From Candidatus Bathyarchaeia archaeon (GTDB lineage: Archaea > Thermoproteota > Bathyarchaeia > TCS64), in contig JBEKDF010000017.1 in assembly GCA_050014495.1 (NCBI GenBank), forward strand, positions 1-59,705: a stretch of DNA of 59,705 bases. Direction: 5' to 3'. The notes under the pieces are model-generated. The model made no database searches, was not told the origin of the DNA, and worked only from the letters and a program-made list of their open reading frames with translations. How positions within the stretch are numbered: position 1 is the first letter of the stretch; the number at the start of each line of letters is the position of its first letter. Of this stretch, positions 2,459 to 57,513 are shown in pieces. The translations under genes and the position numbers were made by a program.

Positions 2459-2586
2459 CGGATATTAATAATTATGGTCAGATATCATTAAAACAGTTAG
2501 TTGTTTAGGAAAAAAATTTGAAATGTGGTCGTGCTGGCCTCAATTTTCTTATCCTCAGCTTCACCTGACTCTCGCGCGCACATTAT

Positions 2587-2667
2587 TTAGGAATTTACTA
2601 ATACTTTTGGTTTGGAGGATTTACCTCGTCTAATGATAATTGATATGGCTACCATTATGATGATGAT
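2587..2667 (-). pseudogene. Orphan 3' fragment encoding a C-terminal membrane anchor
   Basis: IIIIMVAISIIIRRGKSSKPKVLVNS* lies between tracts CGCGCGC (2573-2579) and TGCGCATGCGCA (2668-2679); the upstream part of the ORF is not protein-like. Confidence 0.45.
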
Positions 2668-2827
2668 TGCGCATGCGCATTGTACGTGAAATTTTTGGGT
2701 TTTCACTTTTCTATTTATGATATAGTATTGGTTTATTTCGGAATTTTTCTTTTGCGTGCTATCTTCCATAAAAACTTAAGAATCAGTTCACAATAAGTTG
2801 AAACTGAGAAAGGAAGGAGAATGAAAT

Positions 2828-4318
2828 ATGAATAAAAGACAAATTGTTAGCTTCACTTTGCTAGCCTCTCTATTGCTTTTCTCTTACATCGCAGTCCCGA
2901 TTACCACAAATGCGCAAAATTTAACCAAAGATAATAGTGGGGGATGGGAATATATTGTAAAACCGATAGCTGTCAACTTCGCCAGATATGGAGGAACAGG
3001 TTTTCTGTACAACACGGTGGTTGAGCTTCGTAATGCCTACGACTTGAACCCACTCTATACAGGAGGATACGATGGAAGCGGCCAGACAGTTGTCATAGTC
3101 GACGCCTATGGAAGCCCCACGATCTATCAAGACTTACTCTCGTTCATACAGTTGCAGAACACCGCCACTTACTACGGGGCAAACCTGCCCTGGACGACCC
3201 TGGCTGATGTGCAAAGCCACTTGCACATAATCTATCCCCTTGGAAAGCCAACCTTCAACATAGTAGCCAAAGAGCTATCCGACCCTGACAGCAGGTCTAA
3301 CAAGTTGATCGGCTGGAGCGAGGAGACCACGCTTGACGTTTGCACGGTGCATGCAATAGCCCCCGGAGCAAACATTGATTTGGTCATTGCTCCAGACGCT
3401 GGCGGAAACAGCCTCAACCTCTGTGTTAACTACGCCATCACCAACCATTTAGGATGCGTGATTTCCCAAAGCTATGGCATACCGGAATACCTGCTGCATG
3501 GCAACAATGGCCAAATAATGCAGGCTGATAAAATCTACCAGTTAGCCGCTCAATCATCTTACAGCATTACCGTGTTTGCCTCTTCGGGAGATGGCGGAGC
3601 CACAAACGGCGGGCCATTCAACAACGCTCTATTCCCAGCTTCAGATCCCTACGTCACAGGAGCCGGAGGAACAAATCTATTCATGACGCGTAACGATGGC
3701 TACGAAGAAGGAACGGGAAAATGGGCCAATCGCGACCCAGGGCGAACACTCCCTGGAGTCACGTACAACTATGAGATCGACGGAAACGATTACGAAGCCA
3801 TGGTTGCTGATGGGTACACACCTCCATATGACGCCGTTACAGCAGGCGGCGCCATGAGTTCGTTATTCGCACTGCCCTCTTGGCAATCCGGAATAACCCT
3901 AACCGACACAAACAAGATTACGACCACTCCCACTGGGCGATGCACATCGGATGTCTCCTATGACAGCGGTGTCTACGGTGGCCTAGGACCCATACCCTAT
4001 ACTGCATATCCCCCATTAGCAGGCGCCTACATCATCGGAGGCACTAGCGCATGCTCACCATTCTGGGCTGCACTGACATCTATCGTTTGCCAATATGCTG
4101 GGCACAACTTGGGATACATCAACCCGAGTCTCTATGCATACTATTTCAGCGGAAAAGCCTACACTTCAGGCGCTTTCCACGACATAACATTAGACGACAA
4201 CACATATCCTACAGGTAACACGATACGGGGCTACAAGGCAACCACAGGCTGGGACGCAGCCACAGGCATAGGCAGCCCTGACGCTAACATCCTTGTTCCA
4301 ATTATGGCAGCCTGGTGA
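2828..4318 (+). CDS. Secreted S53 (sedolisin/kumamolisin) family peptidase
   Basis: Signal peptide; EETTLD (catalytic E/D), ASSGDGG oxyanion motif, GGTSACSP nucleophile, GWDAATGIGSP C-terminal motif. Confidence 0.9.
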   Translation: MNKRQIVSFTLLASLLLFSYIAVPITTNAQNLTKDNSGGWEYIVKPIAVNFARYGGTGFLYNTVVELRNAYDLNPLYTGGYDGSGQTVVIVDAYGSPTIYQDLLSFIQLQNTATYYGANLPWTTLADVQSHLHIIYPLGKPTFNIVAKELSDPDSRSNKLIGWSEETTLDVCTVHAIAPGANIDLVIAPDAGGNSLNLCVNYAITNHLGCVISQSYGIPEYLLHGNNGQIMQADKIYQLAAQSSYSITVFASSGDGGATNGGPFNNALFPASDPYVTGAGGTNLFMTRNDGYEEGTGKWANRDPGRTLPGVTYNYEIDGNDYEAMVADGYTPPYDAVTAGGAMSSLFALPSWQSGITLTDTNKITTTPTGRCTSDVSYDSGVYGGLGPIPYTAYPPLAGAYIIGGTSACSPFWAALTSIVCQYAGHNLGYINPSLYAYYFSGKAYTSGAFHDITLDDNTYPTGNTIRGYKATTGWDAATGIGSPDANILVPIMAAW

Positions 4319-4406
4319 AGGTGTTAGAACCACCCAACCACCTTCCACTTTTTTTGTTCGCGCGCGTGGGGAATAAAACTATGGAGGATCGAGCGCGCGA
4401 TCACGC

Positions 4407-5195: not shown

Positions 5196-5292
5196 ACAAT
5201 CACCTACCTAAGTGATCAGTGACCTACTTTTATTTCCAATTTTTCGTCTAATCACGCGTGCGAGTTGGGGATAAGACTATGGTGCGCGCGCG

Positions 5293-5400
5293 AATAGCTG
5301 GGCCTCCTCGTTGATCAGCGTCTCGAGCGTCTGGTGTTCCCCGTTTCTGATCCTCTTGACTTCGACCGTTCTCGAAGAACTCGTTAAGCTCCTCGAGGAA
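5293..5400 (-). pseudogene. Frameshifted gene fragment resembling the C-terminus of archaeal solo Cas1
   Basis: FLEELNEFFE/fs/TVEVKRIRNGEHQTLETLINEEAQLFA, bounded by (CG)n tracts at 5283-5292 and 5401-5407; the Cas1 resemblance is from recall, not a search. Confidence 0.5.
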
Positions 5401-5675
5401 CGCGCGCATTAGCATGATTACCCCGATTGTGCGGAAATATAATGAAGCCGTCGTCGGTTGAGAGTAGCTTGCAATTTATTATTAAATACGTCGCGTGCTG
5501 TAACTAGTTATTGAAGGTACAGGGGTGCTGTTTTGAGGGAAATCTGTCGTGTATCTTTGTGGCGTGTCTTCCATTTGGGAAATGTTTTGGATGTGCCATC
5601 CTCGGGGACGCGTGCGTGGTGGCCTCCAGGGGTTACGCTGGACACGACTAAACATGGTTTGGAGGAGAATTACAG

Positions 5676-8600
5676 ATGAAGGTTGGGGCAGTACTGCTAG
5701 TGACTCTGCTTTTGGTGGGATCTCTAAGCGGGATCGCGCGCGCTGGATACACTCAGCCTCCAGGCTTGGTTGGCTACTGGAATTTTGATCAAGGCTCAGG
5801 TACAATAGCCCAAGACGGCTCCGGCTACAACAATCAAGGAACTATATATGGTGCTTCTTGGACGAGCGGGAAAGTAAATGGCGCCTTGAACTTTAATGGA
5901 CTTAATAATTATGTTGATTGTGGAAATAATGAGATACTCGACCCGGTTCAAGGAGCAACTATCGAGGCGTGGGTTTATTTTAATCAGTTACCATCTGTTG
6001 CAAATCATATCATGGCAATCGCAGGTAGATCTGGCAATGGTAGAGACTTGGACCTACAAACGGAGACTGACAACAGATTCAAATTTTATGTTGGTCCAGG
6101 AGTTCCAAATGTTGCTGTATCGAATACCGTAGTTGAGACTAATAAGTGGTATCACATTGTAGGAACGTACCTAGCTAATAACTATATTAAAATCTACGTT
6201 AATGGTGTATTAGAAAAAACAACTTTAATAAGTATAACCAGAAATACAAATGGAGATAGATTTTTTATAGGACAAAGTTGTGTTTTTCCCGGAAGATTTT
6301 TCAATGGCATAATAGACGAGGTTAAAATTTACAATAGAGCCTTGTCTGCTGAGGAGGTTGTGGCTGAATACACACAATCACACGCGCTATCTCCTCCGAT
6401 ACTTAGTAGCTCCAATGAGGTTACGGGGGAACCCGTTGAGGCGACCGGACCAGCAGGCGCAGTGCCTGCGAATACAACTGTCCAGCTCTACTGGGACACA
6501 ACCACAGGCGCCTGGGATGGCGCTAAGGGCCTCATGAACTCAACCACCGCTGATGCGAGTGGTGCCTACGAGGTCTGGTTCACCGTCCCTGAGGCCACCT
6601 TCGGTACACACCAAGTCTGGGTGAAGGACGCTGACGGCAACACCGCTTCCGCGGCCTTCACTATGCATACTGATAACGAGAACAGCCCCGAAAGTGGAGC
6701 ACCTGGTGACACAATTACAGGAACATTCTACGGGTTCCACGCCACGAAGAACCTCGCAGCCATACTATCAACCGCTAACCCACCTGTGTCGACTGCGGTA
6801 TTCAATGAAGTGCTTGCAATGCCTGACGGTGTGGCGACTGAGTTCAAAGGAACACTCTCACACAGGTATTTAGACCATTATGGCATATTATTCAAAACTA
6901 ATGGTGTGCAACAAGCATATGATGATGGTGGTGGTAACATAGTTGACTCCGGTGGACCATTAACGGCCTCCGGAACCATAGATTACGTGACCGGTGCATA
7001 CGACATCATCTTTACTACTCCACCACCATCCCTGCCAATCGGACTCACTATAGACTACAGATACTATGGCACTAGCTCCGCTCCTGGTTCCACACTGTTC
7101 GATCTTGGATCAGGTGTAACCAACAGTGTTGGATCAGCCGTCATTACTTGGAAGGTCCCAACTAATGTCGCCATCTCAGGCAATAACAACGTCTTCACTG
7201 TAGAATCTGGAGGCTTAATGAACAACATAGACTTCAGGATAATGGGAATCCAATTGAGCTCCAGCTCGGGCCCAACCGGTGAGACCATCACTCTAACAGG
7301 AAATGGTTTTAGTCCAGATGAGGACTGGAACGCCTCAATCGGCTCAAAGACCCTTGGGACTGGCAAGGTCAGCGCCGCTGGCCTGCTTCAGGGTGGAAGC
7401 GGCCTACTTATCCCATACGGCCTCTCCCCAGGAGCATACACGATCACAGTTCTAGACATTGACTCAGATACTGAAACTTCTGCACAGTTTATAGTCACAT
7501 ATGGAACTTCGATTACTGTGAACCCAGACGCTGGGCCAAACAACTATAATGTCACTATTTCTGGAAAGGGTTTTAGCTATCTGGCAATTGGCCCATCTGA
7601 TCTAACCTTCAAACTATACAACAAGACTACCACAGGTGCAACAGACTCCACTTGGGATATGGATGTCAAACAGAACTGGCTGGTTAATGGTCCGATCACT
7701 GCAACGGTGAACAGCCTAGGCATAGTCAGAGCCTACTGGATCGTGCCTGGTTCAGATAAGCTTGGAACCGGAACATACTACATCAACGCTACCGACGCCG
7801 ACGACTACTCAGCTCAAGCCACATTCAAAGTGCTCCCCAAGCACGTTGTTGCGACACCTAGAAATGCGACTTTCGCTAGGGGTGACACGATCACATTCCA
7901 GTTAGAAGACACTTACAAAACTGCACCTGTAGATGGAAGTGTGATTAAGATCTATGATCCTAGTGGTAGTCCGGTCTTCAGCGGCGATAAACTGGATTCT
8001 GCGAAGTGGATCAAGACTGGACTCTGGTACACATTACCATACTCTGCTCAGACGGCAAGCGGCAACCCGATGGTGATCCCAGACGGTGCTCCTCTCGGTA
8101 TATGGTCCTTCAAGTGGGTCGGTACCGATAGCAAGGACATCGCCGCTGGGACCTTCACGGTCGCGCGCGCGAGAGTTGAGACAGCCTATCGGAGTCTTCA
8201 ACCCACTGTAAACAACGAGATTAATTCAGCCAACTATTCGAGCCCAGACGCTAAGGTACTTATAGATCAGGCTCAGAGCGCATATCAGCAAGCTGCAACC
8301 TTAGCCGATCAGGGAAAATTCCAGGACGCGGTAACCGATCTTAACTCTGCCTCTGATTTGCTGAGTAGAGCCCAAACATCGGAGAACACCTATCAAACAG
8401 CATATGATTCCTATCAATCGCTTCTCCAATCCGTTCAGACAAAGCTCAATCAAGCAACGGGTGCGGGTTATAAGAGCACGGATGCGCAATCACTTCTGAG
8501 TCAAGCACAAACCTACATTTCACAAGCAGCTAACTCGACTAAACGTGGTCAGTTGCAGGACGCAAATAATAAATTGACGTCGGCCTCGAACCTTCTCGAT

Positions 8601-8789: not shown

Positions 8790-8954
8790 TCGCGCGCGCC
8801 TCATGGTAGGTCTGCTGGTTTGAAGCTGCCTCGAAGCAATTCGCTCGCGAAGTCATTGGACTTCACTAGCCAATATTCATGACGGCTAGAAGTCATTTAT
8901 CAAGCGCGCGCTGTTGAGGAAGGGATCTGTAAAAAGAGTTTGAGGAGAGCTTCA

Positions 8955-9194
8955 CTAAAGTAGCCCAAGTAACAATATGCCCAGTCCAAGACCGATAACT
9001 AATCCACTTATAAAACCGCCTAAACTCTTACTCTTAAAAACACCAACAAAGGTGATTACGAGACCACCTATAATTACAATACTAACGTATTGACCGAGAT
9101 CTGTGGGAGTTACGAAATCCATTAAAAGAAAACCGGGGATGGAGCCTATAAATAATCCACTCAAAAAATGTGGCATTTGTATTCTAAACTTCAT
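8955..9194 (-). CDS. Small membrane protein (about 3 TM helices)
   Basis: 79 aa, hydrophobic and Gly-rich, ATG start. Confidence 0.65.
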   Translation of the reverse strand: MKFRIQMPHFLSGLFIGSIPGFLLMDFVTPTDLGQYVSIVIIGGLVITFVGVFKSKSLGGFISGLVIGLGLGILLLGLL

Positions 9195-11232: not shown

Positions 11233-11298
11233 AACTCCATATGAGAAAGCTGAAAATGCGCATGCATTCGCGAGGACATGAATCTTCCTTCTCGTGTG

Positions 11299-12789: not shown

Positions 12790-12860
12790 GATTTAAAAAA
12801 TGGTTATGATAGGTTAATTAAATGCTCAGCTCGAGTGCGATGGGCTAATGTATTGAATCG

Positions 12861-13784: not shown

Positions 13785-14009
13785 CGGGTTTTGACCATTA
13801 TGTTCGCGCGCGATGGATTTGTTGTCGCCTTTAGTTTATGGGCTTTGGATTTGTAAATGGAGGGTTCATGTTGTCATCAATGAGGCTACGATGATGAATG
13901 TGAAGCATCTAATTAGTGATTTTCTAAACAAGCCAGCGTGTGATCATGGATTTACTATTTACGTAACCTTATTATCAAACGGTTTCTCCAGAACAAATGG
14001 GTAGTTGCC

Positions 14010-15917: not shown

Positions 15918-16129
15918 TTTATCAACACCTAATTACTTTGTACACCTGTACAATTAATTACTGTGTACAGAACACTGCGCGCTAACCATTTTAGAAATAA
16001 ATAATACGTGCGGCGTGCAAAGTCATCAAAATGTTGATGTCCTGTTGAACCTTATCAGAGAAGCAAAAGAATCTCGCGTACTGTAAATATATAACTGCGT
16101 GTCTTTAGGTAAACTCTAAGTGAAAAAAG

Positions 16130-18825: not shown

Positions 18826-18826
18826 A

Positions 18827-19978
18827 TTGGCGATAAAGTTCCCATATCATATCTACCTTATAATGAAGAAGGACCTGACGGAGTTCTACAGGATCAAGGC
18901 CCGCCTCATCTCGATGACGATGCTCCCGATTATACTGATGCTCCTCTTCGGATACATGTTCCCAGCCGGTGGAGGTGTCAACCACATCTCCATAGCCGTG
19001 GTGCAGCAGGATCAGACCCCGGCTGGCCTCCTCCTCTCTGACAACTTCATCTACGCGGCCCAGTCCACGAAGACCTTCGATGTTCAGACGACTACCTCAC
19101 TCGAGTGGGCTGAGAACCAGATTACCCTGGGTAACATCTATGGCGTCGTGGTCTTCCATCAGGGGGTATCCGATCAGCTCAGGTCGGGTAGCGCCCAAGT
19201 TGAGGTGGTACTCGACCAGGTCAACCCGACCCTCGACCAAGAGGTGAAGGGTGGAATCACTCAGATATTCTTGGAGTTGCAGAATAATCTGAGCCCAAGC
19301 TTCACGGATGGGTTGCCCGGCAACACGGGGCCGACCATTAACCTCCAGTTCGAGGGACTCGTCCCAGGGCAGCAGAGCAGCTTCGAGTTCCTAGCCCCCG
19401 GCATGATCGCCATGACGCTGATCATCGGGGGGCTCTCCGGCTTAGCAATGACGTTCTCGAGGGAGAAGGAGCTTGGGACGCTGGATGGGTTCCTCATGAC
19501 CCCCATTTCGAGGGTGTCCATTATATTCGGTAAAGGTCTAGCGCAGATCGTCCGCGGCTTCCTCACCAGCGGACTCGTATTCGCGATATCGATACTCCTC
19601 TTCGGGGTCCACGTCTATGGGAACCCGTTCCTCATGATCCTTGTGCTGATGCTGGGTGTGACAGCATTCACGGGCCTCGGCATCCTCGCGACGACCTTCG
19701 TCAACGATCAGGAATCCGCTCAGCTCATCATAATGATGATTCAGTTCCCGATGATTTTCCTCAGCGGCGTCCTCTACCCGATCCTACAGTTGCCTTGGTT
19801 CCTCAAGGACATCGCCGCCCTCCTCCCACTGACCTACGTCGTCTCCGCGTTCAGGGCCGTGATGATCCTCAACGCCCCATTCCAAGCCATCTACACCCAG
19901 GTGATAGTCCTGATCATATCCACGATTGTTGTCTACTCCATCGCGATACCCCTCTTCAGGAGATCAGTCATGAGGTGA
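18827..19978 (+). CDS. ABC-2 type transporter permease
   Basis: REKELGTL...TPISR, FLSGVLYP...LP, PLTY motifs; 6 TM helices. Confidence 0.95.
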   Translation: MAIKFPYHIYLIMKKDLTEFYRIKARLISMTMLPIILMLLFGYMFPAGGGVNHISIAVVQQDQTPAGLLLSDNFIYAAQSTKTFDVQTTTSLEWAENQITLGNIYGVVVFHQGVSDQLRSGSAQVEVVLDQVNPTLDQEVKGGITQIFLELQNNLSPSFTDGLPGNTGPTINLQFEGLVPGQQSSFEFLAPGMIAMTLIIGGLSGLAMTFSREKELGTLDGFLMTPISRVSIIFGKGLAQIVRGFLTSGLVFAISILLFGVHVYGNPFLMILVLMLGVTAFTGLGILATTFVNDQESAQLIIMMIQFPMIFLSGVLYPILQLPWFLKDIAALLPLTYVVSAFRAVMILNAPFQAIYTQVIVLIISTIVVYSIAIPLFRRSVMR

Positions 19979-20026
19979 CGCGTGCACGGGATAATTGATA
20001 TATCCCCTCCCCCCGGATAGGATGTC

Positions 20027-23528: not shown

Positions 23529-25241
23529 CTAGTTTAGCAAGCGAGTGGTTTTGAGTAGCGTGAGTACGACTGACACTAGCAAAGCGAGTATTATTAGAGC
23601 CGCAACCCAGGCACTCTGAGTGCCCGTTAGACTTGGAAAACTAGCCACAAGTGGGGTACTGCTTAATACACCGAGGGTCATGCTCCGGGTGTCCCCGCCG
23701 TCTCTAACGAGTAGGGTTAGTGTGTTTGTCATGTTATTCGTGTCCACGAGTGGGGGCTGCCCGGGTATGGGGTTCACAACCATGATTCTGCTGAAGGTTA
23801 GGTTGAAGCGCGACTCTCCTAGATAATCTGATGTGCCTCTCCAGATGGTTTCATTGTCTCTCCTCAGTTCGAGGGATGCTGATTGTAGCTGTGCTCCACC
23901 ACGTAGTACTTTGACTTCGAATCCGCGGGTTACCTGATAGAAGAGGTTGTCGACGCCATACGAGTCAAAGCTCTGAAGATCGCCACCATAGACTAGGCCA
24001 CCACTGATGTAGGTTGGCCTTATCTCGTTGAAATCTGGTTGAATCCAGGCATCATTCTTCACGGTCACGTTTCGTAGGCTGTAGACTGTGTGCGAGTTGA
24101 TGGTCATGTTGACGAAGCTGGAGTCTTTTATCGTGACTTGTCGAGTGGAGCCGATCCAGCTGTACCAGCCTGAGTCCCACTTGTCTATCTGTGAGTCTTC
24201 TATCACTGCGTTCTCGCTTAGGGTGAATGTAGTGCTGCCGATTCTGCTCTTCCTTATAGTCAAGCTTTGGATGGTTGCGTCGGAGGCATCGAGCAGCTTA
24301 ATTGAGCTGTTGCTGATGTCAAGCGTAGCGTTTCCCCTTATGTTTAGACTCTGAGTCACACTGTCTTCAACTGAGATTTCGGAGTGGCCTTGACAGACGA
24401 TGAAGTCCGGGTTCGAGTCTCTCAACCGAAGTGTGCAGTTCACAGTGTAGAGGCAATAGGTCTGGGTGATCCCCACGTCGTCGAAGGTGATATTTCCCGG
24501 TATTCCTCCGCCTTCGAGCTTGGAGTCCCAGTTTTTGATGTTGTCGCTGAGTTTGAGCCTACAGGAGTAGTTGCCGTTGTTGAGCATGAATTCTAGGACG
24601 GCGATTGTGGTGTTTCTGAGGTGGAGGCTCGATGAGCACTGCATTAGCTCACCGATGAACGAGTCCGCTATGTTGCTGACTGTGTCCTTTGAGGTGTTTA
24701 ATATTCCTATGCTTGAGTTGTTTGCATAAAGTCTCGACTCATCAAGCAGGTTGATTGCGTAGGTGTAGTGATATGTGAGGTGTATTGTGCACCAGAACTG
24801 TTTGAAGACCTCGGAGTTAAGCAGTTTTATCGATGAATTGTCGTGGGCGCCGATGTTGTAGGGCACGGTCATGTTAATGTCGGAGTGGTCTAGCTCTAGG
24901 TGCCCGCTGTCTAGAAGCTCGAACGTCCAGTTTCCCTGCGTGAAGTCGAGGTGAGAGTTGACGAGTTTTAGCGAGGCGTTGTCTCTGATGATTATGCTGC
25001 CGTTAACAATGTAATCTTGGTTAGTTATAACGAGTGATTGGTTACCGCTGAGGATGAGGCCCTCCGAGCTCTCGGAGACCATAGTTGTCTGCCCGGTAAC
25101 AATACGTGAGTTTGTGAAGGTCAGGCTTAGTAGAACAATTATGAAGATCGCCGGAGCCTTCAGAGGCAAAATTATTCGAGGTAGTAATTGATTCGAGTCG
25201 GAGAAAAGGTTATGCAGATGCGCATGCGCGCGCGTACTCAC
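23529..25241 (-). CDS. Secreted beta-helix-like surface protein with C-terminal TM helix (true start probably downstream of the 25219-25237 tract)
   Basis: Hydrophobic N-terminal segment, repetitive Asn/Ser/Ile strands (NGSIIIRDNASLKLVNS), C-terminal TM helix. Confidence 0.75.
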   Translation of the reverse strand: MSTRAHAHLHNLFSDSNQLLPRIILPLKAPAIFIIVLLSLTFTNSRIVTGQTTMVSESSEGLILSGNQSLVITNQDYIVNGSIIIRDNASLKLVNSHLDFTQGNWTFELLDSGHLELDHSDINMTVPYNIGAHDNSSIKLLNSEVFKQFWCTIHLTYHYTYAINLLDESRLYANNSSIGILNTSKDTVSNIADSFIGELMQCSSSLHLRNTTIAVLEFMLNNGNYSCRLKLSDNIKNWDSKLEGGGIPGNITFDDVGITQTYCLYTVNCTLRLRDSNPDFIVCQGHSEISVEDSVTQSLNIRGNATLDISNSSIKLLDASDATIQSLTIRKSRIGSTTFTLSENAVIEDSQIDKWDSGWYSWIGSTRQVTIKDSSFVNMTINSHTVYSLRNVTVKNDAWIQPDFNEIRPTYISGGLVYGGDLQSFDSYGVDNLFYQVTRGFEVKVLRGGAQLQSASLELRRDNETIWRGTSDYLGESRFNLTFSRIMVVNPIPGQPPLVDTNNMTNTLTLLVRDGGDTRSMTLGVLSSTPLVASFPSLTGTQSAWVAALIILALLVSVVLTLLKTTRLLN

Positions 25242-33338: not shown

Positions 33339-33580
33339 TCTCTAACCCTCCATAGAGGACTGCGTACTCACCATCTAACTTTTTTGAGGTAAATTACGTC
33401 TAAGTTGAGGTTAGCTTGGTTGTCGATTAGGTAGGAGTCGCTTGTCAATAGTGGTACCTTGTGGAGAATCGATTCTCAGTTTCCAATGCGCGCGCGCACG
33501 CGGGCACAATTCTAATTTCGAATTCCCGAGCCAGTGCGCCCTATAAGTAGGGCATTAAGCGAGGGCGCGAGTGCTACGAG

Positions 33581-45753: not shown

Positions 45754-45769
45754 TAATGGAGAGAATAAT

Positions 45770-47032: not shown

Positions 47033-47042
47033 GTGTGATCGT

Positions 47043-47960: not shown

Positions 47961-48002
47961 CTTAAAATATATCCGATTTACAACTGAGTGAGAGTTGAAT
48001 TT

Positions 48003-48095
48003 TTGAGAATATTATTAGTTCAAGAATCAGATTGGCTTACACGAGACCCTAATCAACAGCATCATTTGATTGAGAGAACGCGCGCGCATACATAA
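48003..48095 (+). pseudogene. Truncated GT4-like glycosyltransferase N-terminus
   Basis: MRILLVQESDWLTRDPNQQHHLIER ends at the (CG)n tract 48079-48087, followed by a stop. Confidence 0.65.
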
Positions 48096-48201
48096 ACAGT
48101 GTTTCGGCGTAATCTTACTCCTCTTGATTAGCTCAGTTGCGCTGGTACTAGCTGCTACGGCATCTGCAGCGCGCGTAAAGTTATAAATTAATAAATTCTA
48201 T

Positions 48202-49053
48202 ATGATATTAATGAAGCAGGTTCCTATTACAGTTATTATTTTAACATTAAATGAGGAGTTAAATATTGATACATGTCTTAAGAGCATTTACAAATGGTCC
48301 GATGATATTTTTATTCTAGATTCATATAGTAAAGATAAAACTATTGAAATTTCAAAAAAATATGTAAATAATATTATCTCAGTTGATCAAAATCATTGGT
48401 CTAGTATTCGTAACTGGGCCTTAAGAAATTTACCAATAAAATATGATTGGGTGTTATTTTTAGATGCCGATGAAAGGTTAACTTATGAATTGAAGACTGA
48501 AATTGAAGAAGTTACACAAGATAATTCAGATATAAATGGTTATTATATTAATAGGAGATTTATTTTTTTAGGCAGATGGTTAAAACACGGAGGATTATAT
48601 ACTAAAATATTAAGACTTTTTAGATATAAATTTACTTATTATATTGCAGATGGAGATGTAGAATATGCAATTGTTAAAGGTAAATCTAGTTATTTAAAAA
48701 ATGATATAATTCATGAAGATAAAAAAGGTATATTTAATTGGATAGAAAAACATAATAAAATTTCTGAAAGAGCTGCAATTCAATTTAATAAAAAACATGA
48801 TATATTATTAACTACTAAAAATAAAGAAATTGAAGTTGAAGGAGGTAAATTAACTTATTTTAAATATAAATTATGGGACAAAATACCACTTATTTTGAGA
48901 CCAATTATTACCTTTTTTTATCAATATGTAATAATGTTAGGTTTTCTAGATGGCATCGAAGGTTTAACCTATCATTTTTTACAGGCATTTTGGTATAGAG
49001 TTTTAATATACGTAAAAGTAAAAGAATTACAATATTATAAATCATTTAAATAA
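48202..49053 (+). CDS. GT2 glycosyltransferase
   Basis: ILTLNEE, LDSYSKD, WVLFLDADE, GFLDG. Confidence 0.9.
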   Translation: MILMKQVPITVIILTLNEELNIDTCLKSIYKWSDDIFILDSYSKDKTIEISKKYVNNIISVDQNHWSSIRNWALRNLPIKYDWVLFLDADERLTYELKTEIEEVTQDNSDINGYYINRRFIFLGRWLKHGGLYTKILRLFRYKFTYYIADGDVEYAIVKGKSSYLKNDIIHEDKKGIFNWIEKHNKISERAAIQFNKKHDILLTTKNKEIEVEGGKLTYFKYKLWDKIPLILRPIITFFYQYVIMLGFLDGIEGLTYHFLQAFWYRVLIYVKVKELQYYKSFK

Positions 49054-49191
49054 GACTAAAAAACAAAACTTTTAAATGTATTTAAATTTTCTACCAAATT
49101 TAAACGCACACGAAAACTTGTTTACATATTATAAATTTATATTTTATATAATATTGTCTATACATCAAAGAAATAAAAATGAATAGTTAGC

Positions 49192-50373
49192 ATGAAAATT
49201 CTTCAAGTAATACCAGTTTTCTCAGATATATTTGGGGGGCCAGTATCCGTAGTACGCTCTTTATCAAAAGAACTAGCGAAGAGACATGAAGTTACTATAT
49301 ATACAACAACCGCCTTAGATCTAAAACACGATATCGAACCTAAAGAAGAAGTAAGAAATAATTATCGAGTTATTTATTTTCCTAGAACATTCCAATCTCT
49401 GAACTATAGCTACCTGTTTGGCCAGCTCAATTTTTCATTAAGCATGATGAATGCTGTAAAAAAGAACCTAACTAACTTTGACATTATTCATCTTCATTCA
49501 TATCGACAGTTTCCAGACCTTTTAGTTCATTATTATGCCACAAAATATAATGTTCCTTACATTTTGCAGGCTCATGGTTCGCTTCCCAGGATGATGACGA
49601 AACAAAGCCTGAAATGGATTTATGATGAATTGTTTGGATATAAATTATTAAAAGATGCGGCTAAGATTATTGCCCTAAATACCGTAGAGTTTGAACAGTA
49701 TAGAGATTTTTCTGTACCTACTGATAAAATAGTTATTGTACCCAATGGAATTGATTTATCGGATTTTACTAATATGCCAGAAAAAGGCGAATTTAAGAAA
49801 AAATATGGTTTAAATGAAGATGAAAAAATAATTCTATATCTTGGGAGAATACATAAAATAAAAGGAATCGATATTCTTATTAAAGCATTCAAAGAGGTTA
49901 TCGATACTTTAGATTGTGTCAAACTAGTTTTAGTTGGTCCTGATGATGGTTATCTCAATGAAATTAAGGATTTAATAAAAAAACTTGGTTTAGAAAAAAA
50001 TATTATAATTACAGGCGCATTGTTTGGAAAAGAAAAATTTATGGCGTATGTAGATGCAGATATATTTGTATTACCTTCAAGATATGAAATTTTTCCTGTG
50101 AGTGTTCTTGAGGCATTTTCATGTGGTATACCTGTGATTGCCTCAAATGTTGGTGGTTTAAGAGGTTTAATATTAGATGGTGAAACGGGTTTATTATTTG
50201 AATCAGAAAATATAGAACAATTAGCTAATAATATTTTATCACTAATTAATGATAAAGAAAAAAATAGGATAATCAGCATTAATGGAAAACAATTTATTAA
50301 TGATAACCTTTCAATAGAAAGAGTTACAGAAGTTCTTGAAAATTGTTACAAAGAAATTATAAAAAGTAATTAA
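49192..50373 (+). CDS. GT4 glycosyltransferase
   Basis: GGP, VPNGID, LGRIHKIKG, LPSRYEIF..SVLEA. Confidence 0.95.
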   Translation: MKILQVIPVFSDIFGGPVSVVRSLSKELAKRHEVTIYTTTALDLKHDIEPKEEVRNNYRVIYFPRTFQSLNYSYLFGQLNFSLSMMNAVKKNLTNFDIIHLHSYRQFPDLLVHYYATKYNVPYILQAHGSLPRMMTKQSLKWIYDELFGYKLLKDAAKIIALNTVEFEQYRDFSVPTDKIVIVPNGIDLSDFTNMPEKGEFKKKYGLNEDEKIILYLGRIHKIKGIDILIKAFKEVIDTLDCVKLVLVGPDDGYLNEIKDLIKKLGLEKNIIITGALFGKEKFMAYVDADIFVLPSRYEIFPVSVLEAFSCGIPVIASNVGGLRGLILDGETGLLFESENIEQLANNILSLINDKEKNRIISINGKQFINDNLSIERVTEVLENCYKEIIKSN

Positions 50374-50583
50374 AATTGGATGTTTATTAATCTCTTGAAA
50401 ATAATGCATGTGTGTATTATTGCTCAAAGATCGGTTCGCGTGCATAAATATCCAAATTATATATACAACGGAAAATTTATACTAATTTGGCTGTGCTTAC
50501 GCGCGCGACTCAATGTTTAAAAGAAAATTAGAAAATAAAATAATTTAAATGGGATCTTACGAGCGAGTGAGGTTGTAACATTA

Positions 50584-52254
50584 TTGTCAAGCTATAGACT
50601 ACCATTTTTTAGATTAAATTTTAGTAATATAAAATTATCAATATGTTTAATATCTAATGTTATCCTTATTATGAGTTTATATTATAATTTATCTTCTTTA
50701 ATCTTTCCTTTAAGTCTTACTTTATCAATATTATTCGGAGTTATGTTTATTTTTAATAAAGATAAGATAAAACCTGTTGAAATTTTTATGATTTTTTTGC
50801 CTTTAGCTGTTACACGGTATATTTTTACTATTAGATTTGGATTACCTAGTGGTTATGATGATATTCATGCGCATATAATTTGGACTGAAAATGCTATTAT
50901 TAATGGAAATATTAATTTTGCATATCTTGCACAATCTTCAGATAATTTTGTCGGCTTATATGTTTACTACAATATAGTAAAATTATTTACTAATATTGAT
51001 ATTCCCTATTTAGCCATCTATTTACAGCCTATTGTAGATATAGCTTCTTTTATTGTTTTTTATAAATTTGTCAGATTATTTTCAAGAGAAAAAATAGCTT
51101 TAATAGCCCTGGTTTTATTTGGGTGGGAACCGGTTATCTTTGATTTCGGTGAATATCGAACCCAATCCTTTTGCCTAATATTTTTATTAACATTTTTATA
51201 TTTTATAGTAAAAAATAAAAATAATTATAATAAATCCGAAATAATTTTATCTATTTTATTAATGATGGATATTACCATTACATCTTTTGTGACTTTCTTT
51301 ATTTGTTACATACTTATATTTGTTGCAATTTTTACTAATATATTTTCAAAAATAATAATAAAGACAAAAGAAAAAGAATTATTTCCTCTAAACAAATTTC
51401 ATTTATTAACTTTTACTATATTATTTATCGGATATATTTCTTATATAGGTAATAGTATTAACAATTTACTACCTGCTATAATTAAAGAAATTAACAATAC
51501 TTTCTTTTTTAAATATTCAACACCAAATATTATGTCTTCTATCTTTATTGATTATGGAATTGGGACATTTTATATACAATGGATAGTTAAAGCAGTAATA
51601 TTCATTTTCACCATGGTTCTATTTTTACATCAATTATATTATAAAAAAAATATAACGTTATCTATTTTAACATTTACTTTAGGTTTTTTAACTTTACTAG
51701 GTTTATTAGGTTCTTTTGAATTAAATTCAAATCGAATATATTATTTTTTTATAATTTTTGCTTCAATCACTATGGCGAAAGGTTACGAAGTAATTAATAA
51801 TTATTTATCGATTAATTATGCCAAATTTTTAAGGGTCTTTCTTTTCTTTTTAATATTATTTTTTGCAATATTTTCAATAATACGTTTACCCAATTATATA
51901 ATCGGAAATACATATCCATTTAGAACAAATTCAACTATAGACAAACTTACATATTATGATGTCACAAATAAGGATATTAATATAGGAAAATTTCTTAATC
52001 AGTATGGTATAAATAAATATATATATTTTAATACCCTGGAAAATATATTTTCCTATTACTACCCATTCACACGAACTATACCTCTTTATGAATATAATAT
52101 AAATAACTTTAACAATAGTTTAATAATTTTTTTGCATGATAATTATAATGGAAATAGAGATTATTATGGCCGAGATCAATTCCCGACTGTTAAAGATCTA
52201 TCTGATCTAAATTTAGTTTTCCAAAACAGAGACATGTTTTTATTTTATAAATAA
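50584..52254 (+). CDS. Multi-TM membrane protein of the glycan locus (polymerase/GT-C-like, uncertain)
   Basis: Very AT-rich, more than 10 TM helices, GYDDIHAH loop. Confidence 0.65.
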   Translation: MSSYRLPFFRLNFSNIKLSICLISNVILIMSLYYNLSSLIFPLSLTLSILFGVMFIFNKDKIKPVEIFMIFLPLAVTRYIFTIRFGLPSGYDDIHAHIIWTENAIINGNINFAYLAQSSDNFVGLYVYYNIVKLFTNIDIPYLAIYLQPIVDIASFIVFYKFVRLFSREKIALIALVLFGWEPVIFDFGEYRTQSFCLIFLLTFLYFIVKNKNNYNKSEIILSILLMMDITITSFVTFFICYILIFVAIFTNIFSKIIIKTKEKELFPLNKFHLLTFTILFIGYISYIGNSINNLLPAIIKEINNTFFFKYSTPNIMSSIFIDYGIGTFYIQWIVKAVIFIFTMVLFLHQLYYKKNITLSILTFTLGFLTLLGLLGSFELNSNRIYYFFIIFASITMAKGYEVINNYLSINYAKFLRVFLFFLILFFAIFSIIRLPNYIIGNTYPFRTNSTIDKLTYYDVTNKDINIGKFLNQYGINKYIYFNTLENIFSYYYPFTRTIPLYEYNINNFNNSLIIFLHDNYNGNRDYYGRDQFPTVKDLSDLNLVFQNRDMFLFYK

Positions 52255-52266
52255 GAATAAGATAAA

Positions 52267-52959
52267 ATGAAAAAATTTATAGTCACAACAAGCTGGGATG
52301 ATGGAAATAAGTTTGACCTTCAGATTGCTAGATTATTGGATAAATATCAGTTAAAAGGGACATTTTATGTTAGTCCAAAATTAAGTAACGGATTAAGTAA
52401 TATAGAGTTAAAAAAAATTGAATTAAATCATGAGATTGGTGCTCACACAATCACACATCCAGTTTTAACAGATATCCCAATAGATCGTGCTGAAGCGGAA
52501 ATAAAAGACTCTAAAAAATATTTAGAAAATTTATTAAAACGTGATATCTCCATGTTTTGTTATCCCAAAGGATATTATAATCAACAAATAAAAGAAATAG
52601 TTAAAAACAGTGGTTTTTTAGGTGCTCGAACATGCGTTCATGGTAATTTTGAAAAACCAAAAGATCCATATCAATGGCAGATTACTCTGCATGCATCCAA
52701 TGGTTCGCCATTAATGACAACGAGGATTTGGATTAGATCAAAAATATCAGTGTTATCTTTATTTGATTGGGAATATCGTGCGAAAAACCTTTTTGATCTA
52801 TTTCTTGAGAAGGGTGGTATATATCATATATGGGGGCATTCTTGGGAAATTGAAAATAATAACGAATGGGATAAGCTTGAAAGAGTTTTTAAATATATTT
52901 CTCAAAAAAAAGATATTAACTATTTGACAAACAAAGAGATATTTGAAAAAGATTTTTAA
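52267..52959 (+). CDS. Polysaccharide deacetylase (CE4/NodB)
   Basis: TSWDDG, HEIGAHTITHP, FCYPKG, WGHSWE. Confidence 0.9.
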   Translation: MKKFIVTTSWDDGNKFDLQIARLLDKYQLKGTFYVSPKLSNGLSNIELKKIELNHEIGAHTITHPVLTDIPIDRAEAEIKDSKKYLENLLKRDISMFCYPKGYYNQQIKEIVKNSGFLGARTCVHGNFEKPKDPYQWQITLHASNGSPLMTTRIWIRSKISVLSLFDWEYRAKNLFDLFLEKGGIYHIWGHSWEIENNNEWDKLERVFKYISQKKDINYLTNKEIFEKDF

Positions 52960-53031
52960 CTTTTATTAAATAGATAATTTATCTTAAAAAATATGATTAG
53001 ATTCCACTGATGAACGTGTGCTGAATATATC

Positions 53032-54195
53032 ATGAGGATTGTAATTACTGTTGAAGAATTTGATCCTGAAAAAGGATACCTAGAATATAACTTAGCAAGA
53101 GAACTATCAAAGTTGGGGCATAAGGTATATGTATTTACGTATGGTTGGAGCAAAGAGACTATAATGAAAATCAATTGTGAAGGGTTCGTGATCATTTATT
53201 TACCATATATTATTTCGATCAATTCTTATCATTTTCCGAGTCCTTCAGGACTTTTCTATATTAATAATTTCCTTAGAAAGGAAAGACCTCATATAGTTCA
53301 CTGTATTCCAGTTTTCTCTCCTTTATCTTTAATTTTTATTTCATGGTCAAAATTATATGGTTATAAAATTGTAGGAGATATAATGACTCAGCTGAATTTA
53401 ATATTCTCACCTTGGAACATCAAACAAAAATTACTATTTTACATTTCAAAAATTGTCGTTACTAAATATATAGCACGGAAATCTGCAGCTTTTACTGCTA
53501 AAACCAATGAACTTGTGAAAATACTTTCACGAAGTTATAATGTACCTGAAAATAAGTTTAGAATCGTTCCCTTAGGCACAGATCCTCAACTGTTCAAGTT
53601 TAACCCGGTTGCAAGAGTGAATATAAGAAAAGAGTTGAGCATTTCTGAAAAAGATATTATAATAGTTTATAGTGGTAAGATAGATTATACAAAAGGAATC
53701 GACTTACTAATAAAAGCATTATCACCACTAATGAATGAAAATGGTAAAATAAAACTATTAATTATAGGTAGCGCTGAATTAATTTATGTTGAGTATCTTA
53801 AAATACTGATTTCTGAACTTGGAATTTCAAAAAATGTTATTTTTCACCAATGGGTCAAAAAATATGAGCTTCCTGACCTTTATAGTGCTAGCGACATTGC
53901 TGTTTGGCCCGGCCTTTCCTCAATTTCTGCAGTTGATGCAGCTTCTGTAGGTTTACCTTTAATACTTGCAGACGTCCCAATTGAAAATTTTGTTGTTAAT
54001 AACAACAATGGATTCGTATTCAGTTTAGGTAACGTGAACGAACTCCGAAAGTACCTAAGAATATTGGTGGATAATGAGGATATGCGCAGAGAGATGGGCT
54101 ATAGATCAAGAGAATTTGTTGAAAGAAAATTGAACTGGGAGGCAATCACTCTACAGTATCTTAATGTTTATAGAGAAGTTTTAAACGTTAAATGA
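53032..54195 (+). CDS. GT4 glycosyltransferase
   Basis: LARELSKLGHKV, YSGKI...KG, YSASDIAVWP. Confidence 0.9.
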   Translation: MRIVITVEEFDPEKGYLEYNLARELSKLGHKVYVFTYGWSKETIMKINCEGFVIIYLPYIISINSYHFPSPSGLFYINNFLRKERPHIVHCIPVFSPLSLIFISWSKLYGYKIVGDIMTQLNLIFSPWNIKQKLLFYISKIVVTKYIARKSAAFTAKTNELVKILSRSYNVPENKFRIVPLGTDPQLFKFNPVARVNIRKELSISEKDIIIVYSGKIDYTKGIDLLIKALSPLMNENGKIKLLIIGSAELIYVEYLKILISELGISKNVIFHQWVKKYELPDLYSASDIAVWPGLSSISAVDAASVGLPLILADVPIENFVVNNNNGFVFSLGNVNELRKYLRILVDNEDMRREMGYRSREFVERKLNWEAITLQYLNVYREVLNVK

Positions 54196-54233
54196 CGTTC
54201 CATATAAGGTAATAGAGATGTGGATCTATTATT

Positions 54234-55109
54234 ATGATTAAAGTTGTGATTACAGCTGCTGGTATTGGGACGCGTTTGCTTACTGTGACAAAAGAGCAAC
54301 CCAAGGAAATGTTACCTCTATTCACAGATAATAAGGATGGCTGTCTCTCTGTTAAGCCATTGCTACAAATAATATTCGAGCAACTTTACCAGAGTCAATT
54401 CCGAGAGTTTTGTTTCATTACCGGACGGGGTAAAAGAGTTATAGAAGATCACTTCACAATCGACCTCAATTTCATCAAGCAACTCAAAAACAAGGGAAAA
54501 TATGACCTAGTTTTTCCATTGGAAGAATTCTACAACAAACTTGAGGACTCCCTAATTATGTGGATAAACCAACCTGAACCAAAAGGCTTTGGCCACGCAG
54601 TCTTAATGGCAAAACCTTATGTTAAAAATGAAACTTTTCTAGTTCACGCTGGTGACACCTATATAATGTCTTCTCATGAGGACATACCTCTAAAAAGGAT
54701 GCTAGAAACTCACAACAAAAACAAATCCGATGCAACTCTACTTCTAAAAAAAATAAAAAATCCAAAGCAATACGGCATAGCCGATGTCCAGGAAAATAAA
54801 GATACTCTTATAGTAAGACGAGTTATAGAGAAACCAGAAAAACCTTCAACAGATCTCGCTATCATGCCCATCTACATATTCAACAATACGATATTAACTG
54901 CTTTAGAAAAAACCTCACCAGGCTTAGGAGGAGAAATCCAATTAACTGACGCTATACAACATTTAATAAATGACGGATTAAAAGTTCAAGCCATAAAACT
55001 GAGAGACGATGAAATTCGATTAGACGTAGGTAATCCCGAAACTTACTGGGAGGCAATAAATGAATCCTATAAAAATATTCAAAAACATATGACACTGCAT
55101 AAGAAATAA
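54234..55109 (+). CDS. galU: UTP--glucose-1-phosphate uridylyltransferase / sugar-phosphate nucleotidyltransferase
   Basis: AAGIGTRL...KEMLP, QPEPKGFGHAV, EKP, EIQLTDAI. Confidence 0.85.
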   Translation: MIKVVITAAGIGTRLLTVTKEQPKEMLPLFTDNKDGCLSVKPLLQIIFEQLYQSQFREFCFITGRGKRVIEDHFTIDLNFIKQLKNKGKYDLVFPLEEFYNKLEDSLIMWINQPEPKGFGHAVLMAKPYVKNETFLVHAGDTYIMSSHEDIPLKRMLETHNKNKSDATLLLKKIKNPKQYGIADVQENKDTLIVRRVIEKPEKPSTDLAIMPIYIFNNTILTALEKTSPGLGGEIQLTDAIQHLINDGLKVQAIKLRDDEIRLDVGNPETYWEAINESYKNIQKHMTLHKK

Positions 55110-55156
55110 CTACAATTTTATACTCAAAAGAATATATAGAAAAAGAGAAATACTAT

Positions 55157-56512
55157 ATGAACCAGCGCCGCATCTCCGTTATCGGCACAGGCTATGTTGG
55201 CTTATCAACAGCACTCGGCTTCACAAGCAAAGACTTCACTGTCATCGCGTCAGACCCTGACAAAACTAAGATAAAAATGATAAACGAAGGTAATCTTCCA
55301 TTTCACGAACCAAACTTACAAGAACCACTCACAAAAGCTATTCAAAATGGTAACCTCAGTATTACAAAATGCGAAGAAGCCATAGCAAGCACTGACATCA
55401 CTTTTATAGCTGTCGGTACTCCTAGTCGACCTGATGGAAGCATTAATTTAAAATTCATCGAAAAAGCTACAGGCGAAATTGGAAATGCCCTAAAGAAAAA
55501 GAGAGCCTACCACCTAATAGTGATTAAAAGCACAGTTACACCTACAACAACAGAAAAAAGACTTAAACCAATTATTGAAGCCCAATCGGACAAAAATTGC
55601 GGTATAGACTTTGGTTTATGTATGAACCCAGAATTCCTACGCGAAGGTTCAGCGTTTCACGATGTCTTACATCCTGACCGCCTAATCATAGGTGAATACG
55701 ACATTAAATCTGGCGATTACTTAGAGGCTCTTTACCAAGAATTCTATATGGACAACATTCCGCCTATCTTAAGGACAAATATTCCTACAGCTGAACTCAT
55801 CAAATACGCCAGTAATGCCTTTTTGGCAACAAAAATAAGTTACATTAACACGATAGCAAATATTTGTGAAAAAATTCCAAACGTAGATGTTACTCTGGTA
55901 GCTAAGGGTATGGGTTTAGACAAAAGAATAGGCTCTCAATTTTTAAATGCTGGATTAGGATATGGTGGTTCATGCTTTCCAAAAGATACTAAGGCGCTTA
56001 TTTTCTATTCAAAGTCTGTAGGTTATAATCCTGATCTTCTAAAATCCGTCGAAGTTGTAAATAAACTCCAGCCTCATATTACTATTAAAAAAATAAAAAA
56101 TCTTATCGTCGATCTAAAGGGCAAAAATATTGCCATCCTAGGATTATCGTTTAAACCAAACACAGACGATATGAGAGAAGCCGTATCAATACCAATAATA
56201 AAACTACTTTTAGAAGAAAACGCAAATGTAACTGCTTATGATCCTATAGCCATTAACAATGCAAAAACTATTTTTAATGAGAATATTAGCTATGCTTCAT
56301 CAGCTATTCAATGCATAAAAAATGCTGACTGCTGTATAATAGTAACTGAATGCGAAGAATTTAAAAATTTAAAACCAGAAGATTTTATAAAAAATATGAA
56401 ACAACCTTTTCTTATAGATGGAAGAAGAATCTATAATCAAAAAGAATTCTGTCAGAAAATGAAGTTTGTAGCTATTGGACTTGGCCAAATTTATGATAGT
56501 CCATTAAAATAA
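55157..56512 (+). CDS. ugd: UDP-glucose 6-dehydrogenase
   Basis: GTGYVG, AVGTP, NPEFLREG, GYGGSCFPKD, FKPNTDD.RE. Confidence 0.95.
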   Translation: MNQRRISVIGTGYVGLSTALGFTSKDFTVIASDPDKTKIKMINEGNLPFHEPNLQEPLTKAIQNGNLSITKCEEAIASTDITFIAVGTPSRPDGSINLKFIEKATGEIGNALKKKRAYHLIVIKSTVTPTTTEKRLKPIIEAQSDKNCGIDFGLCMNPEFLREGSAFHDVLHPDRLIIGEYDIKSGDYLEALYQEFYMDNIPPILRTNIPTAELIKYASNAFLATKISYINTIANICEKIPNVDVTLVAKGMGLDKRIGSQFLNAGLGYGGSCFPKDTKALIFYSKSVGYNPDLLKSVEVVNKLQPHITIKKIKNLIVDLKGKNIAILGLSFKPNTDDMREAVSIPIIKLLLEENANVTAYDPIAINNAKTIFNENISYASSAIQCIKNADCCIIVTECEEFKNLKPEDFIKNMKQPFLIDGRRIYNQKEFCQKMKFVAIGLGQIYDSPLK

Positions 56513-56651
56513 ACAAATTTTAGATATAAGCGCTATTACATTAAAATCATGATTATGAAATCTGCGTTTTTAACCATTGTGCGCGCGATTGATGTAAAAA
56601 AGGGGTGAGACACTAATCCAACGCGCCCAGTTAATCTTATGGAGTTAAAGA

Positions 56652-57437
56652 TTATTGTAAATCATTATAAACTGGATGGTATATTCCAATCTTACTCTCT
56701 TTTTTGATTTCGGAGATATCCCATTTTTTGTTAAGTTGAACCATAGGGAAATCCAAACATGAACAGGAGAATCCAAGACCCGTTATTACTGAGGGTAATC
56801 GGAGTTCACAATATCCAAATGGTAGTTCTATTTTACTTATTTTTTCAAGGACTTTTTTAGATATTATGAATCCCGGAAAAAAACCTTTAAATAAAGTTGG
56901 GTTTAATTTTTTTCTCTTTAACCAGTTTTTTACTGAATTTTTCCCTGTAAAAGGAAGCCTTACCCAACTCCATTGTGATTCATTATGTATTTTTTCATAG
57001 CGATTAAATGCCGCATCAAATTTCGTATATTTTCCATATACATCATTAATTAATCCTTTAATGTATAAATCATACTTATTAAAGATAAGAAAATCAAAAT
57101 TTAAACATTTACCTCGATTTACGTACCAATTTAATATTGAAATATCTTGGTTAAGATATCCTAAAGGCGTACAATCTACATATAAATTCATATCATTCTC
57201 TTTTAGTAATTTATTTAATTCACCTATTTCTACTCTTCTTAATCTACTTTCCATAATTGAGTTAATTTTGGAATTTATATTATAAATTGTTTTATCTCTA
57301 TAAAACATAAAATCTATAAGACGTTCAGTACCATATTTTGAAAACGTTGGTGGAAAAAAAGATCTACCACCAATTCCATATACAGGAGCTATTATTATAT
57401 TTGGATTCATTTCCATTAATTTATGAATTCTTTTCAA
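56652..57437 (-). CDS. AT-rich hypothetical protein, possibly glycan-related
   Basis: 261-aa ORF ending in IYHPV, bounded by (CG)n tracts at 56580-56587 and 57458-57466. Confidence 0.6.
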   Translation of the reverse strand: MKRIHKLMEMNPNIIIAPVYGIGGRSFFPPTFSKYGTERLIDFMFYRDKTIYNINSKINSIMESRLRRVEIGELNKLLKENDMNLYVDCTPLGYLNQDISILNWYVNRGKCLNFDFLIFNKYDLYIKGLINDVYGKYTKFDAAFNRYEKIHNESQWSWVRLPFTGKNSVKNWLKRKKLNPTLFKGFFPGFIISKKVLEKISKIELPFGYCELRLPSVITGLGFSCSCLDFPMVQLNKKWDISEIKKESKIGIYHPVYNDLQ

Positions 57438-57513
57438 ATAAACTAAATTAGGGCGATCGCGCGCGCTCCTATGATAAACGCCTCAGGAGCCCCGGCGTCC
57501 GGGCAGCACCCCA

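Follow-up and report, generated by a model that had tools for sequence, protein, structure and literature searches.

Short tracts of alternating C and G, (CG)n, are strewn over a 59,705-nt contig (contig C17, JBEKDF010000017.1, analyzed at full length and hereafter called the window) of a Candidatus Bathyarchaeia archaeon, whose 3.1-Mb draft genome (G000, assembly GCA_050014495.1) consists of 92 contigs with a contamination of 7.5%. By comparing the tracts with the corresponding loci in related genomes, we found that they are very probably scars, i.e. newly added letters at rejoined DNA ends. Their writer is probably a stand-alone PriS-like protein of the archaeo-eukaryotic primase (AEP) superfamily, which would copy the core of its own RNA. 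The overall picture, which we favor on balance, is that of a mobile archaeal ribonucleoprotein, made up of a primase fold and a pseudoknotted template RNA, that would act as an analogue of telomerase. Its self-complementary tails, put on any broken or incoming DNA, would glue any two ends together and thereby drive deletion, the capture of genes and the shuffling of domains in Bathyarchaeia, leaving a record that identifies its RNA and that has been made into a landing pad for transposons.

DNA of the window is present in sequencing runs from peat and wetland, and its genes map to scattered spots in genomes of the same genus, the gene order not being kept in relatives; the window is accessory DNA. 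By one fixed definition it contains 57 tracts, 41 of which lie in the 7.8 kb of intergenic DNA (13% of the window) and 16 in the 51.9 kb of open reading frames (ORFs). Pure runs of at least 7 nt number 26, against a mean of 3.65 and a maximum of 7 in 40 local order-2 Markov simulations. Over the whole genome, GCGCGCGC and CGCGCGCG exceed an order-2 Markov model 17.6-fold and 13.1-fold, respectively, and pure runs of 8 to 10 nt are 21–42 times denser outside ORFs than inside. Pure runs of 8, 9, 10 and 11 nt were counted 192, 144, 111 and 5 times, respectively, with seven longer ones, and the 10-mers are of G..C phase in 78 cases and of C..G phase in 33. An alternating tract was found at every coordinate listed in a preliminary description of this DNA, and the intergenic enrichment over background that it expected is evident from these counts. 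Its statement that tracts mark nearly every junction between unrelated genes was slightly overstated, as a tract is present in 23 of the 32 spacers of at least 60 bp but in only 2 of 19 short or overlapping junctions, and a weak 7-mer lies at 22177 inside the 20027–22738 block, one of the coherent operons at whose internal junctions it saw no tracts. Iterated palindromes of the HIP1 type consist of a fixed palindrome spread over coding and non-coding DNA. The tracts differ from these in their variable length and phase and in their higher density outside ORFs, and also from integron cassette arrays, which rely on attC sites and IntI, in not being fixed sites.

Among 151 genomes of the class Bathyarchaeia, the number of GCGCGCGC copies spans 0 to 601, and even within one genus it is 1 in G001 and 512 in G000. 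Genomes with at least 40 copies, 27 in all, are here called tract-rich. A control 8-mer, GGCCGGCC, does not track the trait, e.g. G098 has 601 copies of GCGCGCGC and two of the control, although the latter count may be lowered by restriction avoidance. GC content was rejected as a cause, the control being rare in tract-rich genomes. G194 was discarded as a carrier of the trait, as its many runs sit within ORFs of ~60% GC.

That the tracts are additions is indicated by a sister strain (X13 and X15, both from 2025 and possibly from one campaign), ~97% alike over positions 1–9003, which carries exactly GCGCGCGCGC, i.e. ten alternating G/C letters, in place of 9004–9054. The flanks of this joint end in AAT and start with ATT, and no letters are common to both sides. 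The sister strain also has a 95-for-80-nt replacement that begins at the tract at 13805. When homologues of at least 88% identity from this genome and from relatives' stretches were compared (overlapping loci included), 181 tract edges could be tested. Of these, 79 had a parent without GCGC or CGCG, 47 had the tract kept in place, 43 shared it with another partner and 12 were ends of insertion sequences (ISs). Only 0–2 letters are shared at 67 of the 79 edges with a tract-free parent, and at 82% identity the unique edges of this kind number 174. Both parents were found for seven junctions, with fillers of 5–10 nt, an eighth having been dropped as an IS end. Furthermore, 29 length-changing sites were found, among them tract-closed deletions of 50, 169, 186, 210, 320, 455, 974 and 2258 bp within genes. 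In an unbiased census covering 1.40 Mb of relatives' DNA, a tract was present on the shorter allele in 11 of 62 indels (10 of the 40 in which this genome is the shorter) and, by test, on the longer allele in none, one parent showing a tract on inspection. One of the two readings in the preliminary description, that of scars at break or deletion junctions, is thereby upheld by the sister strain, the tract-free parents and the census alike, and some indels and deletions do end at tracts in alignments to relatives, as it had anticipated.

Some of the scars appear within proteins. At the in-frame tract at 8162, the homologues in G011 and G013 switch to a different, tract-free C-terminal part. The fusion seen in the window recurs in G002, there with a 10-mer that is not a tract. 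In-frame pure tracts of at least 8 nt were also observed deep within long ORFs at C3:76677 of G000 and in 12 other places, one of them replacing 9 nt by 12 in an 816-aa protein.

The preliminary description had proposed a search for, among others, primase-polymerases, and this gave the best candidate for the writer, a PriS-like AEP on contig C53 (Table 1), even though it is the associated RNA and not the AEP that tracks the trait best. The family of this AEP comprises 91 relatives; in 46 of its sequences a DxD motif, an SGxxGxHxH motif and a third Asp are invariant. Its nearest solved kin is PriS (E 3e-13), and these motifs together with the PriS likeness place it in the archaeo-eukaryotic primase superfamily. 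Pfam identified no nuclease or recombinase domain in full-length family members, and a single-protein query of viral contigs returned no relative. The AEP was matched in 6 of the 27 tract-rich and in 4 of the 124 tract-poor genomes. The operon on C53 consists of the AEP, a 1.6-kb insert, two small ORFs resembling those of the intact operon in locus L266, the RNA at 10220, a further ORF and a second RNA.

Among the best 80 of 237 confirmed metagenome loci, 56 have a conserved non-coding element that overlaps the end of the AEP gene or comes after it (41 by pattern and 15 more at E<0.01). The RNA, of ~90 nt, has a 7-bp stem P1, a variable hairpin, the word GAUGA, a core that is short and self-complementary, and an A-run; a further stem, P3, crosses P1. 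P1 pairs at a mean of 6.9 of 7 positions, while P3 pairs at 7 of 7 in 24 of 40 sequences, compared to 14% with swapped partners. Both crossing stems show compensatory changes, and the RNA is predicted to fold as a pseudoknot. Its CUGA and GAUGA words are presumably similar to those of box C/D kink-turns; neither the RNA nor the window matched any family in Rfam. This genome has eight copies, two on C53 and the others on C56, C21, C16, C40, C62 and C15, none of them in the window. The cores of all eight read G(C/U)GCAU, and the model takes the core of this genome as GGCGCAU. A search within this genome alone for a conserved or strongly folded tract did not find the RNA, because its core there is only GCGC. 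Two further copies (L369 and L370, in G096) have the cores CACACAU and GCACAU, which would predict scars of (TG)n type in that genome.

A sequence-only model built from 29 RNAs, with 25 RNA candidates scored per genome, was run on 150 of the class genomes. The RNA was matched in 19, namely 15 of 27 tract-rich and 4 of 123 tract-poor genomes; these last four matches are weak, and the two inspected (G108 and G132) are without a GC core. The letters next to the scars also follow the core. In genomes with an xCGCAU core (G000, G005 and G016), the letters after a run that ends in C are AT in 327 cases and TA in 104, while the partial stretches of genomes with mainly GCGCUA cores (G098, G105, G123, G103, G111 and G092) have AT 5 and TA 31 times, and G002, with the core GUGCAU, has AT 47 and TA 31 times. 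The complement of GCGCAU is ATGCGC, and that of GCGCUA is TAGCGC. Cores of other types were found in a few metagenome loci. Three loci with the core UAGCUAGCU have TAGCTAGC at 8.4 per 10 kb, compared to 0–1.3 elsewhere, and in a single locus with the core GCAUGCA the TGCA runs reach 47.6, compared to 0–1.4 elsewhere. In the sister-strain joint at 9003/9055, the sequence of AAT, ten G/C letters and ATT is the outcome that would be expected of two AT-ended ends tailed from GCGCAU, a comparison that uses the RNA core of this genome and not the sister strain's own. Seventy-five of 108 edges fit four predicted registers, part of the fit being forced by the assignment of overlaps.

The scars could be written in the following manner. 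The RNA would be made and bound by the AEP, and a broken 3' end would pair with the RNA core (GGCGCAU here) through its final one or two bases. The AEP would then add (AT)GCGC, slip back two bases and add GC again. Two ends tailed in this way would be complementary whatever their origin, and could anneal and be sealed by host enzymes, with a filler of 5–10 nt left behind. Deletions, imported genes and gene fragments would be joined by this route, sometimes in frame.

Several observations weigh against this model. The RNA was not matched in 12 of the 27 tract-rich genomes, nor in three tract-rich genomes of another class that have intergenic 10-mers, and the AEP was not matched in 21 of the 27, the drafts concerned being 76–96% complete. 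In the single contig of G098 the RNA is truncated at its 5' end and no AEP was found. Missing matches of this kind could be explained by loss of the writer after scarring or by shallow scoring. In G000 itself, the 1.6-kb insert lies between the AEP on one side and the two ORFs with the RNA on the other, and present activity of the C53 operon therefore remains putative. The non-GC core variants come from three loci and one locus, respectively, and both the association and the flank tests overstate the case, because kin are not independent. A T followed by C, which a simple register does not predict, is read at 10 of the 108 edges. There is no enrichment of T 5' of AT, which leaves pairing with the A-run of the RNA unsupported, and the model gives no account of why pure runs end at ~10 nt. 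As 51 of the 62 census indels are without a tract, other joining routes must also operate. Lastly, we know of no citable precedent for RNA-to-DNA copying by PriS-like proteins.

Two known systems invite comparison. Telomerase caps chromosome ends and can also heal internal breaks. Its RNA, as outlined in a recent account, has a short template with alignment and templating parts in a frame of stem and pseudoknot, and the same source describes DRT10 as a reverse transcriptase (RT) with a non-coding RNA, in which a variable template loop dictates a tandem repeat and which makes protein-primed free cDNA in phage defence (bioRxiv 10.1101/2025.10.16.682844). Like that of telomerase, the RNA found here is predicted to enclose a variable core between stems that cross each other, both of which show compensatory changes, the added DNA matches the complement of the template across genomes and loci (a correlational match), and repeated addition to a DNA 3' end is predicted. 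Unlike in telomerase, the protein is PriS-like and not a TERT-type RT, and the repeat is self-complementary, 5–10 nt only, and seems to serve the joining of ends, not their capping. With DRT10 the present system has in common a prokaryotic enzyme and a non-coding RNA with a variable template. It differs in that its product resides in chromosomal junctions, its enzyme is an AEP and its operon consists of the AEP, two small ORFs and the RNA; the DRT10 operon is labelled as SLATT-type. The RVT_1 profile had no match across this genome, and because the enzyme is not an RT the system is a member of neither group, although it would work in a similar way.

In the open-access literature we found neither the scars nor the AEP-RNA pair described. 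If the model is right, it would be an undescribed route of end joining, in which an RNA template supplies the homology, and telomerase-like repeat addition would have had a second origin, in a fold without known reverse transcription. It would also bear on break repair and on the uptake of foreign genes in archaea without Ku, and a system this small (a protein of ~270 aa and a 90-nt RNA with a naturally varying core) might offer a re-programmable tool for end tailing. Even by themselves, the scars show to the base where DNA was broken in the past, and do so throughout a class that is widespread and uncultured.

An alternative writer is the replicative PriSL, which might need no RNA template and produce the filler by terminal transfer, with GC ends annealing repeatedly. 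PriS-type genes occur in 147 of the 151 genomes, so that every tract-rich genome could use PriSL. As far as described in two reports, PriSL in Saccharolobus needs no more than two GC pairs to anneal ends and favors small insertions of C at breaks, the indels at its junctions being mostly 1–2 bp (PMC12019639, PMC3333859). The microhomology-mediated end joining (MMEJ)/PADT of PriSL in Saccharolobus/Sulfolobus thus resembles the model above in having an archaeal primase fold at breaks and G/C end pairing, but involves a replicative enzyme without RNA template, as opposed to a patchy, mobile AEP with an RNA and a patterned filler. Where PriSL-dependent MMEJ would leave 1–2-bp indels with GC microhomology, the fillers here are of 5–10 nt with 0–2 shared letters. 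Nor does a near-universal PriS account for the range of GCGCGCGC counts among genomes, for lineage-specific AT/TA flanks or for TAGC/TGCA runs beside RNAs with those cores, and we consider this explanation unlikely. It is likewise improbable that the RNA recognizes the scars instead of writing them, i.e. that an unidentified enzyme of the host makes the tracts, to which the RNA guides its mobile element. The covariation of RNA and scars has no direction, and by itself cannot separate a template from a guide; moreover, the IS110-family element in the window, discussed below, lands on tracts and contains a GCGCGC segment that is conserved, which illustrates that scar-matching RNAs can evolve as guides. 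However, the partner protein of the RNA has polymerase motifs with no nuclease or recombinase domain in Pfam, and the presence of the RNA tracks tract abundance across several families.

Other candidate writers were tried and rejected. Ku (Ku/LigD) is found in 27 of the 151 genomes (7 of 27 tract-rich, 20 of 124 tract-poor), PolX in 45 (13 of 27 and 32 of 124) and a DDE transposase in 28. A second, 439-aa AEP on contig C20 was matched in 3 of the 151 genomes at E 1e-25 and has no GC core beside its gene in this genome. A PolY search of this genome gave no match, and Prim-Pol PF09250 was searched for in five genomes and not found. The cluster of Ku, LigD polymerase and ligase-phosphoesterase is complete in G000 (C3:64.2–67.5 kb), so that the genes known from Ku-LigD non-homologous end joining are present, but Ku does not follow the trait; Ku-LigD might seal some of the joints.

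Returning to the scars as probable products of the AEP and its RNA, a number of them have been reused. The module at 2580–4358 (Table 1) is missing in the sister strain, where a single tract remains, and in the window CGCGCGC is directly repeated on both of its sides. The intact parents are without tracts, and the tracts are therefore products before they are sites. Old scars later come to serve as borders where modules are gained or lost, and members of two IS families land on them. About 58 ends (41 and 17) of the DDE IS family in this genome are followed by GCGCG in a fixed phase, and GTGC variants of the adjoining tract among identical IS copies point to the tract as the target. Beyond the IS-adjacent tracts, the homologues of the DNA are tract-free (e.g. 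at C14:3913, C6:94999, C29:121 and C24:45825), from which it follows that the ISs landed on earlier scars. The reverse, that these IS5/IS1182-like elements produced the tracts as target duplications or footprints, would agree with the fixed phase and with the DDE IS being more common in tract-rich genomes (12 of 27, against 16 of 124), but is very unlikely given not only these homologues but also that the target motif is missing in uninterrupted parents, including that of the 9004–9054 event. In addition, no DDE transposase was found in the tract-rich genomes G098, G105, G123, G013, G097, G134 and G128, and the excess of 10-mers in G..C phase speaks against a 4-bp duplication of cGCGCg.

The IS110-family element sits between the end of the DDE IS and its tract, an arrangement seen likewise in 11 of 11 clean left-end junctions. 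Its non-coding end includes a GCGCGC segment (58707–58713), conserved in 11 loci, which is predicted to be the target guide. In the same end, GCCUAG matches the left half of the target and GCGCGCU the right half, in the order predicted for a bridge RNA. IS4321/IS5075 reportedly target the inverted repeats of Tn21 (title of a study cited in PMC11187229). The window element resembles these in landing at the end of another transposon and differs in that its target also takes in the GC scar. Its landing did not cause the scars but is a side effect of them. At C63:7897–8100, C9:103 and C33:206 of G000 and in loci L077, L102 and L103 there is a second repeated element, with CGCGCGC behind its end in every case and a conserved GC core inside; it is probably another tract-targeting IS.

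The preliminary description had also offered the tracts as universal sites at which genes behave like cassettes, and in the form of primary recombination sites with a recombinase of their own this is hardly credible. One module was gained or lost between two tracts, 43 of the 181 edges share their tract with another partner, and the gene order of the window differs in relatives. This, together with the two IS families, supports a secondary use of the kind described above. The parents, however, are without tracts, many tracts break genes, length and phase vary, and part of the 43 shared-tract edges are IS ends. A first self-comparison, in which 73 of 109 ends fell at tracts, is left out of the evidence, since IS ends at contig ends had raised the count. 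Finally, an artefact of assembly or binning, which the fragmentation and contamination of the draft could have suggested, can safely be dismissed, as contigs from runs not marked as source (X3 and X7; X3 over 2557–5655 and 9605–14276) cross many tracts with zero mismatch, so that these are not assembly chimeras, a concern voiced in the preliminary description, and the trait is seen again in two genomes assembled into one and five contigs.

Table 1. Coordinates of the tracts, genes and mobile elements discussed. Positions refer to the window unless another contig is given.
Feature	Position	Strand	Remarks
Tract, left border of 1.8-kb module	2573..2583		
1.8-kb module, 496-aa gene (no Pfam match)	2580..4358	+	Sister-strain joint 2579->4368 (X13, X15)
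Tract pair, right border of 1.8-kb module	4359..4399		
Five tracts	5253..5618		Fragment 5289-5400, flanked by two of these tracts, also occurs at other places in this genome and in related ones
In-frame 10-nt tract in 1037-aa ORF	8162..8171	+	
Intact parent of scar, 51 bp without any CG run	9004..9054		Sister-strain joint 9003->9055
Tract	13805..13812		Homology to G016, G013 and G009 stops here
Tract at left edge of ABC operon block	16075..16081		Block 16084-19976 common with G016
Tract at right edge of G016-shared ABC operon block	19978..19988		
Longest alternating tract, 20 nt	25218..25237		Adjoins 72-nt fragment 25252-25323 resembling 3' end of ABC permease gene
17-nt tract	33486..33502		Begins ATGCGCGCGCGC, as the RNA core of this genome would predict
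Glycosylation cluster	39236-57437		GC drops to 22-37%, with a 51-55% GC block at 42030-44483
Five tracts (48078, 48169, 50437, 50498, 56578)	48078..56587		Inside 22-37% GC glycosylation DNA
Landing-site tract	57458..57466		Originally flank of DDE IS at 58775; now split off by IS110
IS110-family element	57467..58774	-	Transposase 57514-58599 (Pfam)
DDE IS (DDE_Tnp_1 + DUF772 type)	58775..59705	+	Cut by contig end
Stand-alone PriS-like AEP, 268 aa	C53 7058-7864		Outside window
439-aa AEP, long C-terminal part, behind 114-aa ORF	G000 C20:26050-27366		320 relatives

Two other repeated elements were observed. A dispersed repeat of ~30 nt with the core GGAAGTGAGGATAAG has 182 matches at up to 2 mismatches, on contigs C15, C16, C24, C50 and C53 of G000 and others, with decayed copies in the window at 2548–2570, 4369–4385, 5266–5282 and 26484. 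Its copies often form same-strand series 500–1200 bp apart, resembling a cassette array, and were within 600 bp of 5 of the 7 AEP-RNA places checked; its GGATAA plus 6 bp is, we assume, akin to a dif-like half site. The other, a conserved and strongly folded non-coding element of ~230 nt at 14640–14860, had no match in Rfam and was not found in five genomes of other genera. It is 80–88% alike in many genomes of the same genus, where its neighbors change, its closing stem is conserved with few compensatory pairs (6 sequences), and it is often located between copies of the 30-nt repeat.

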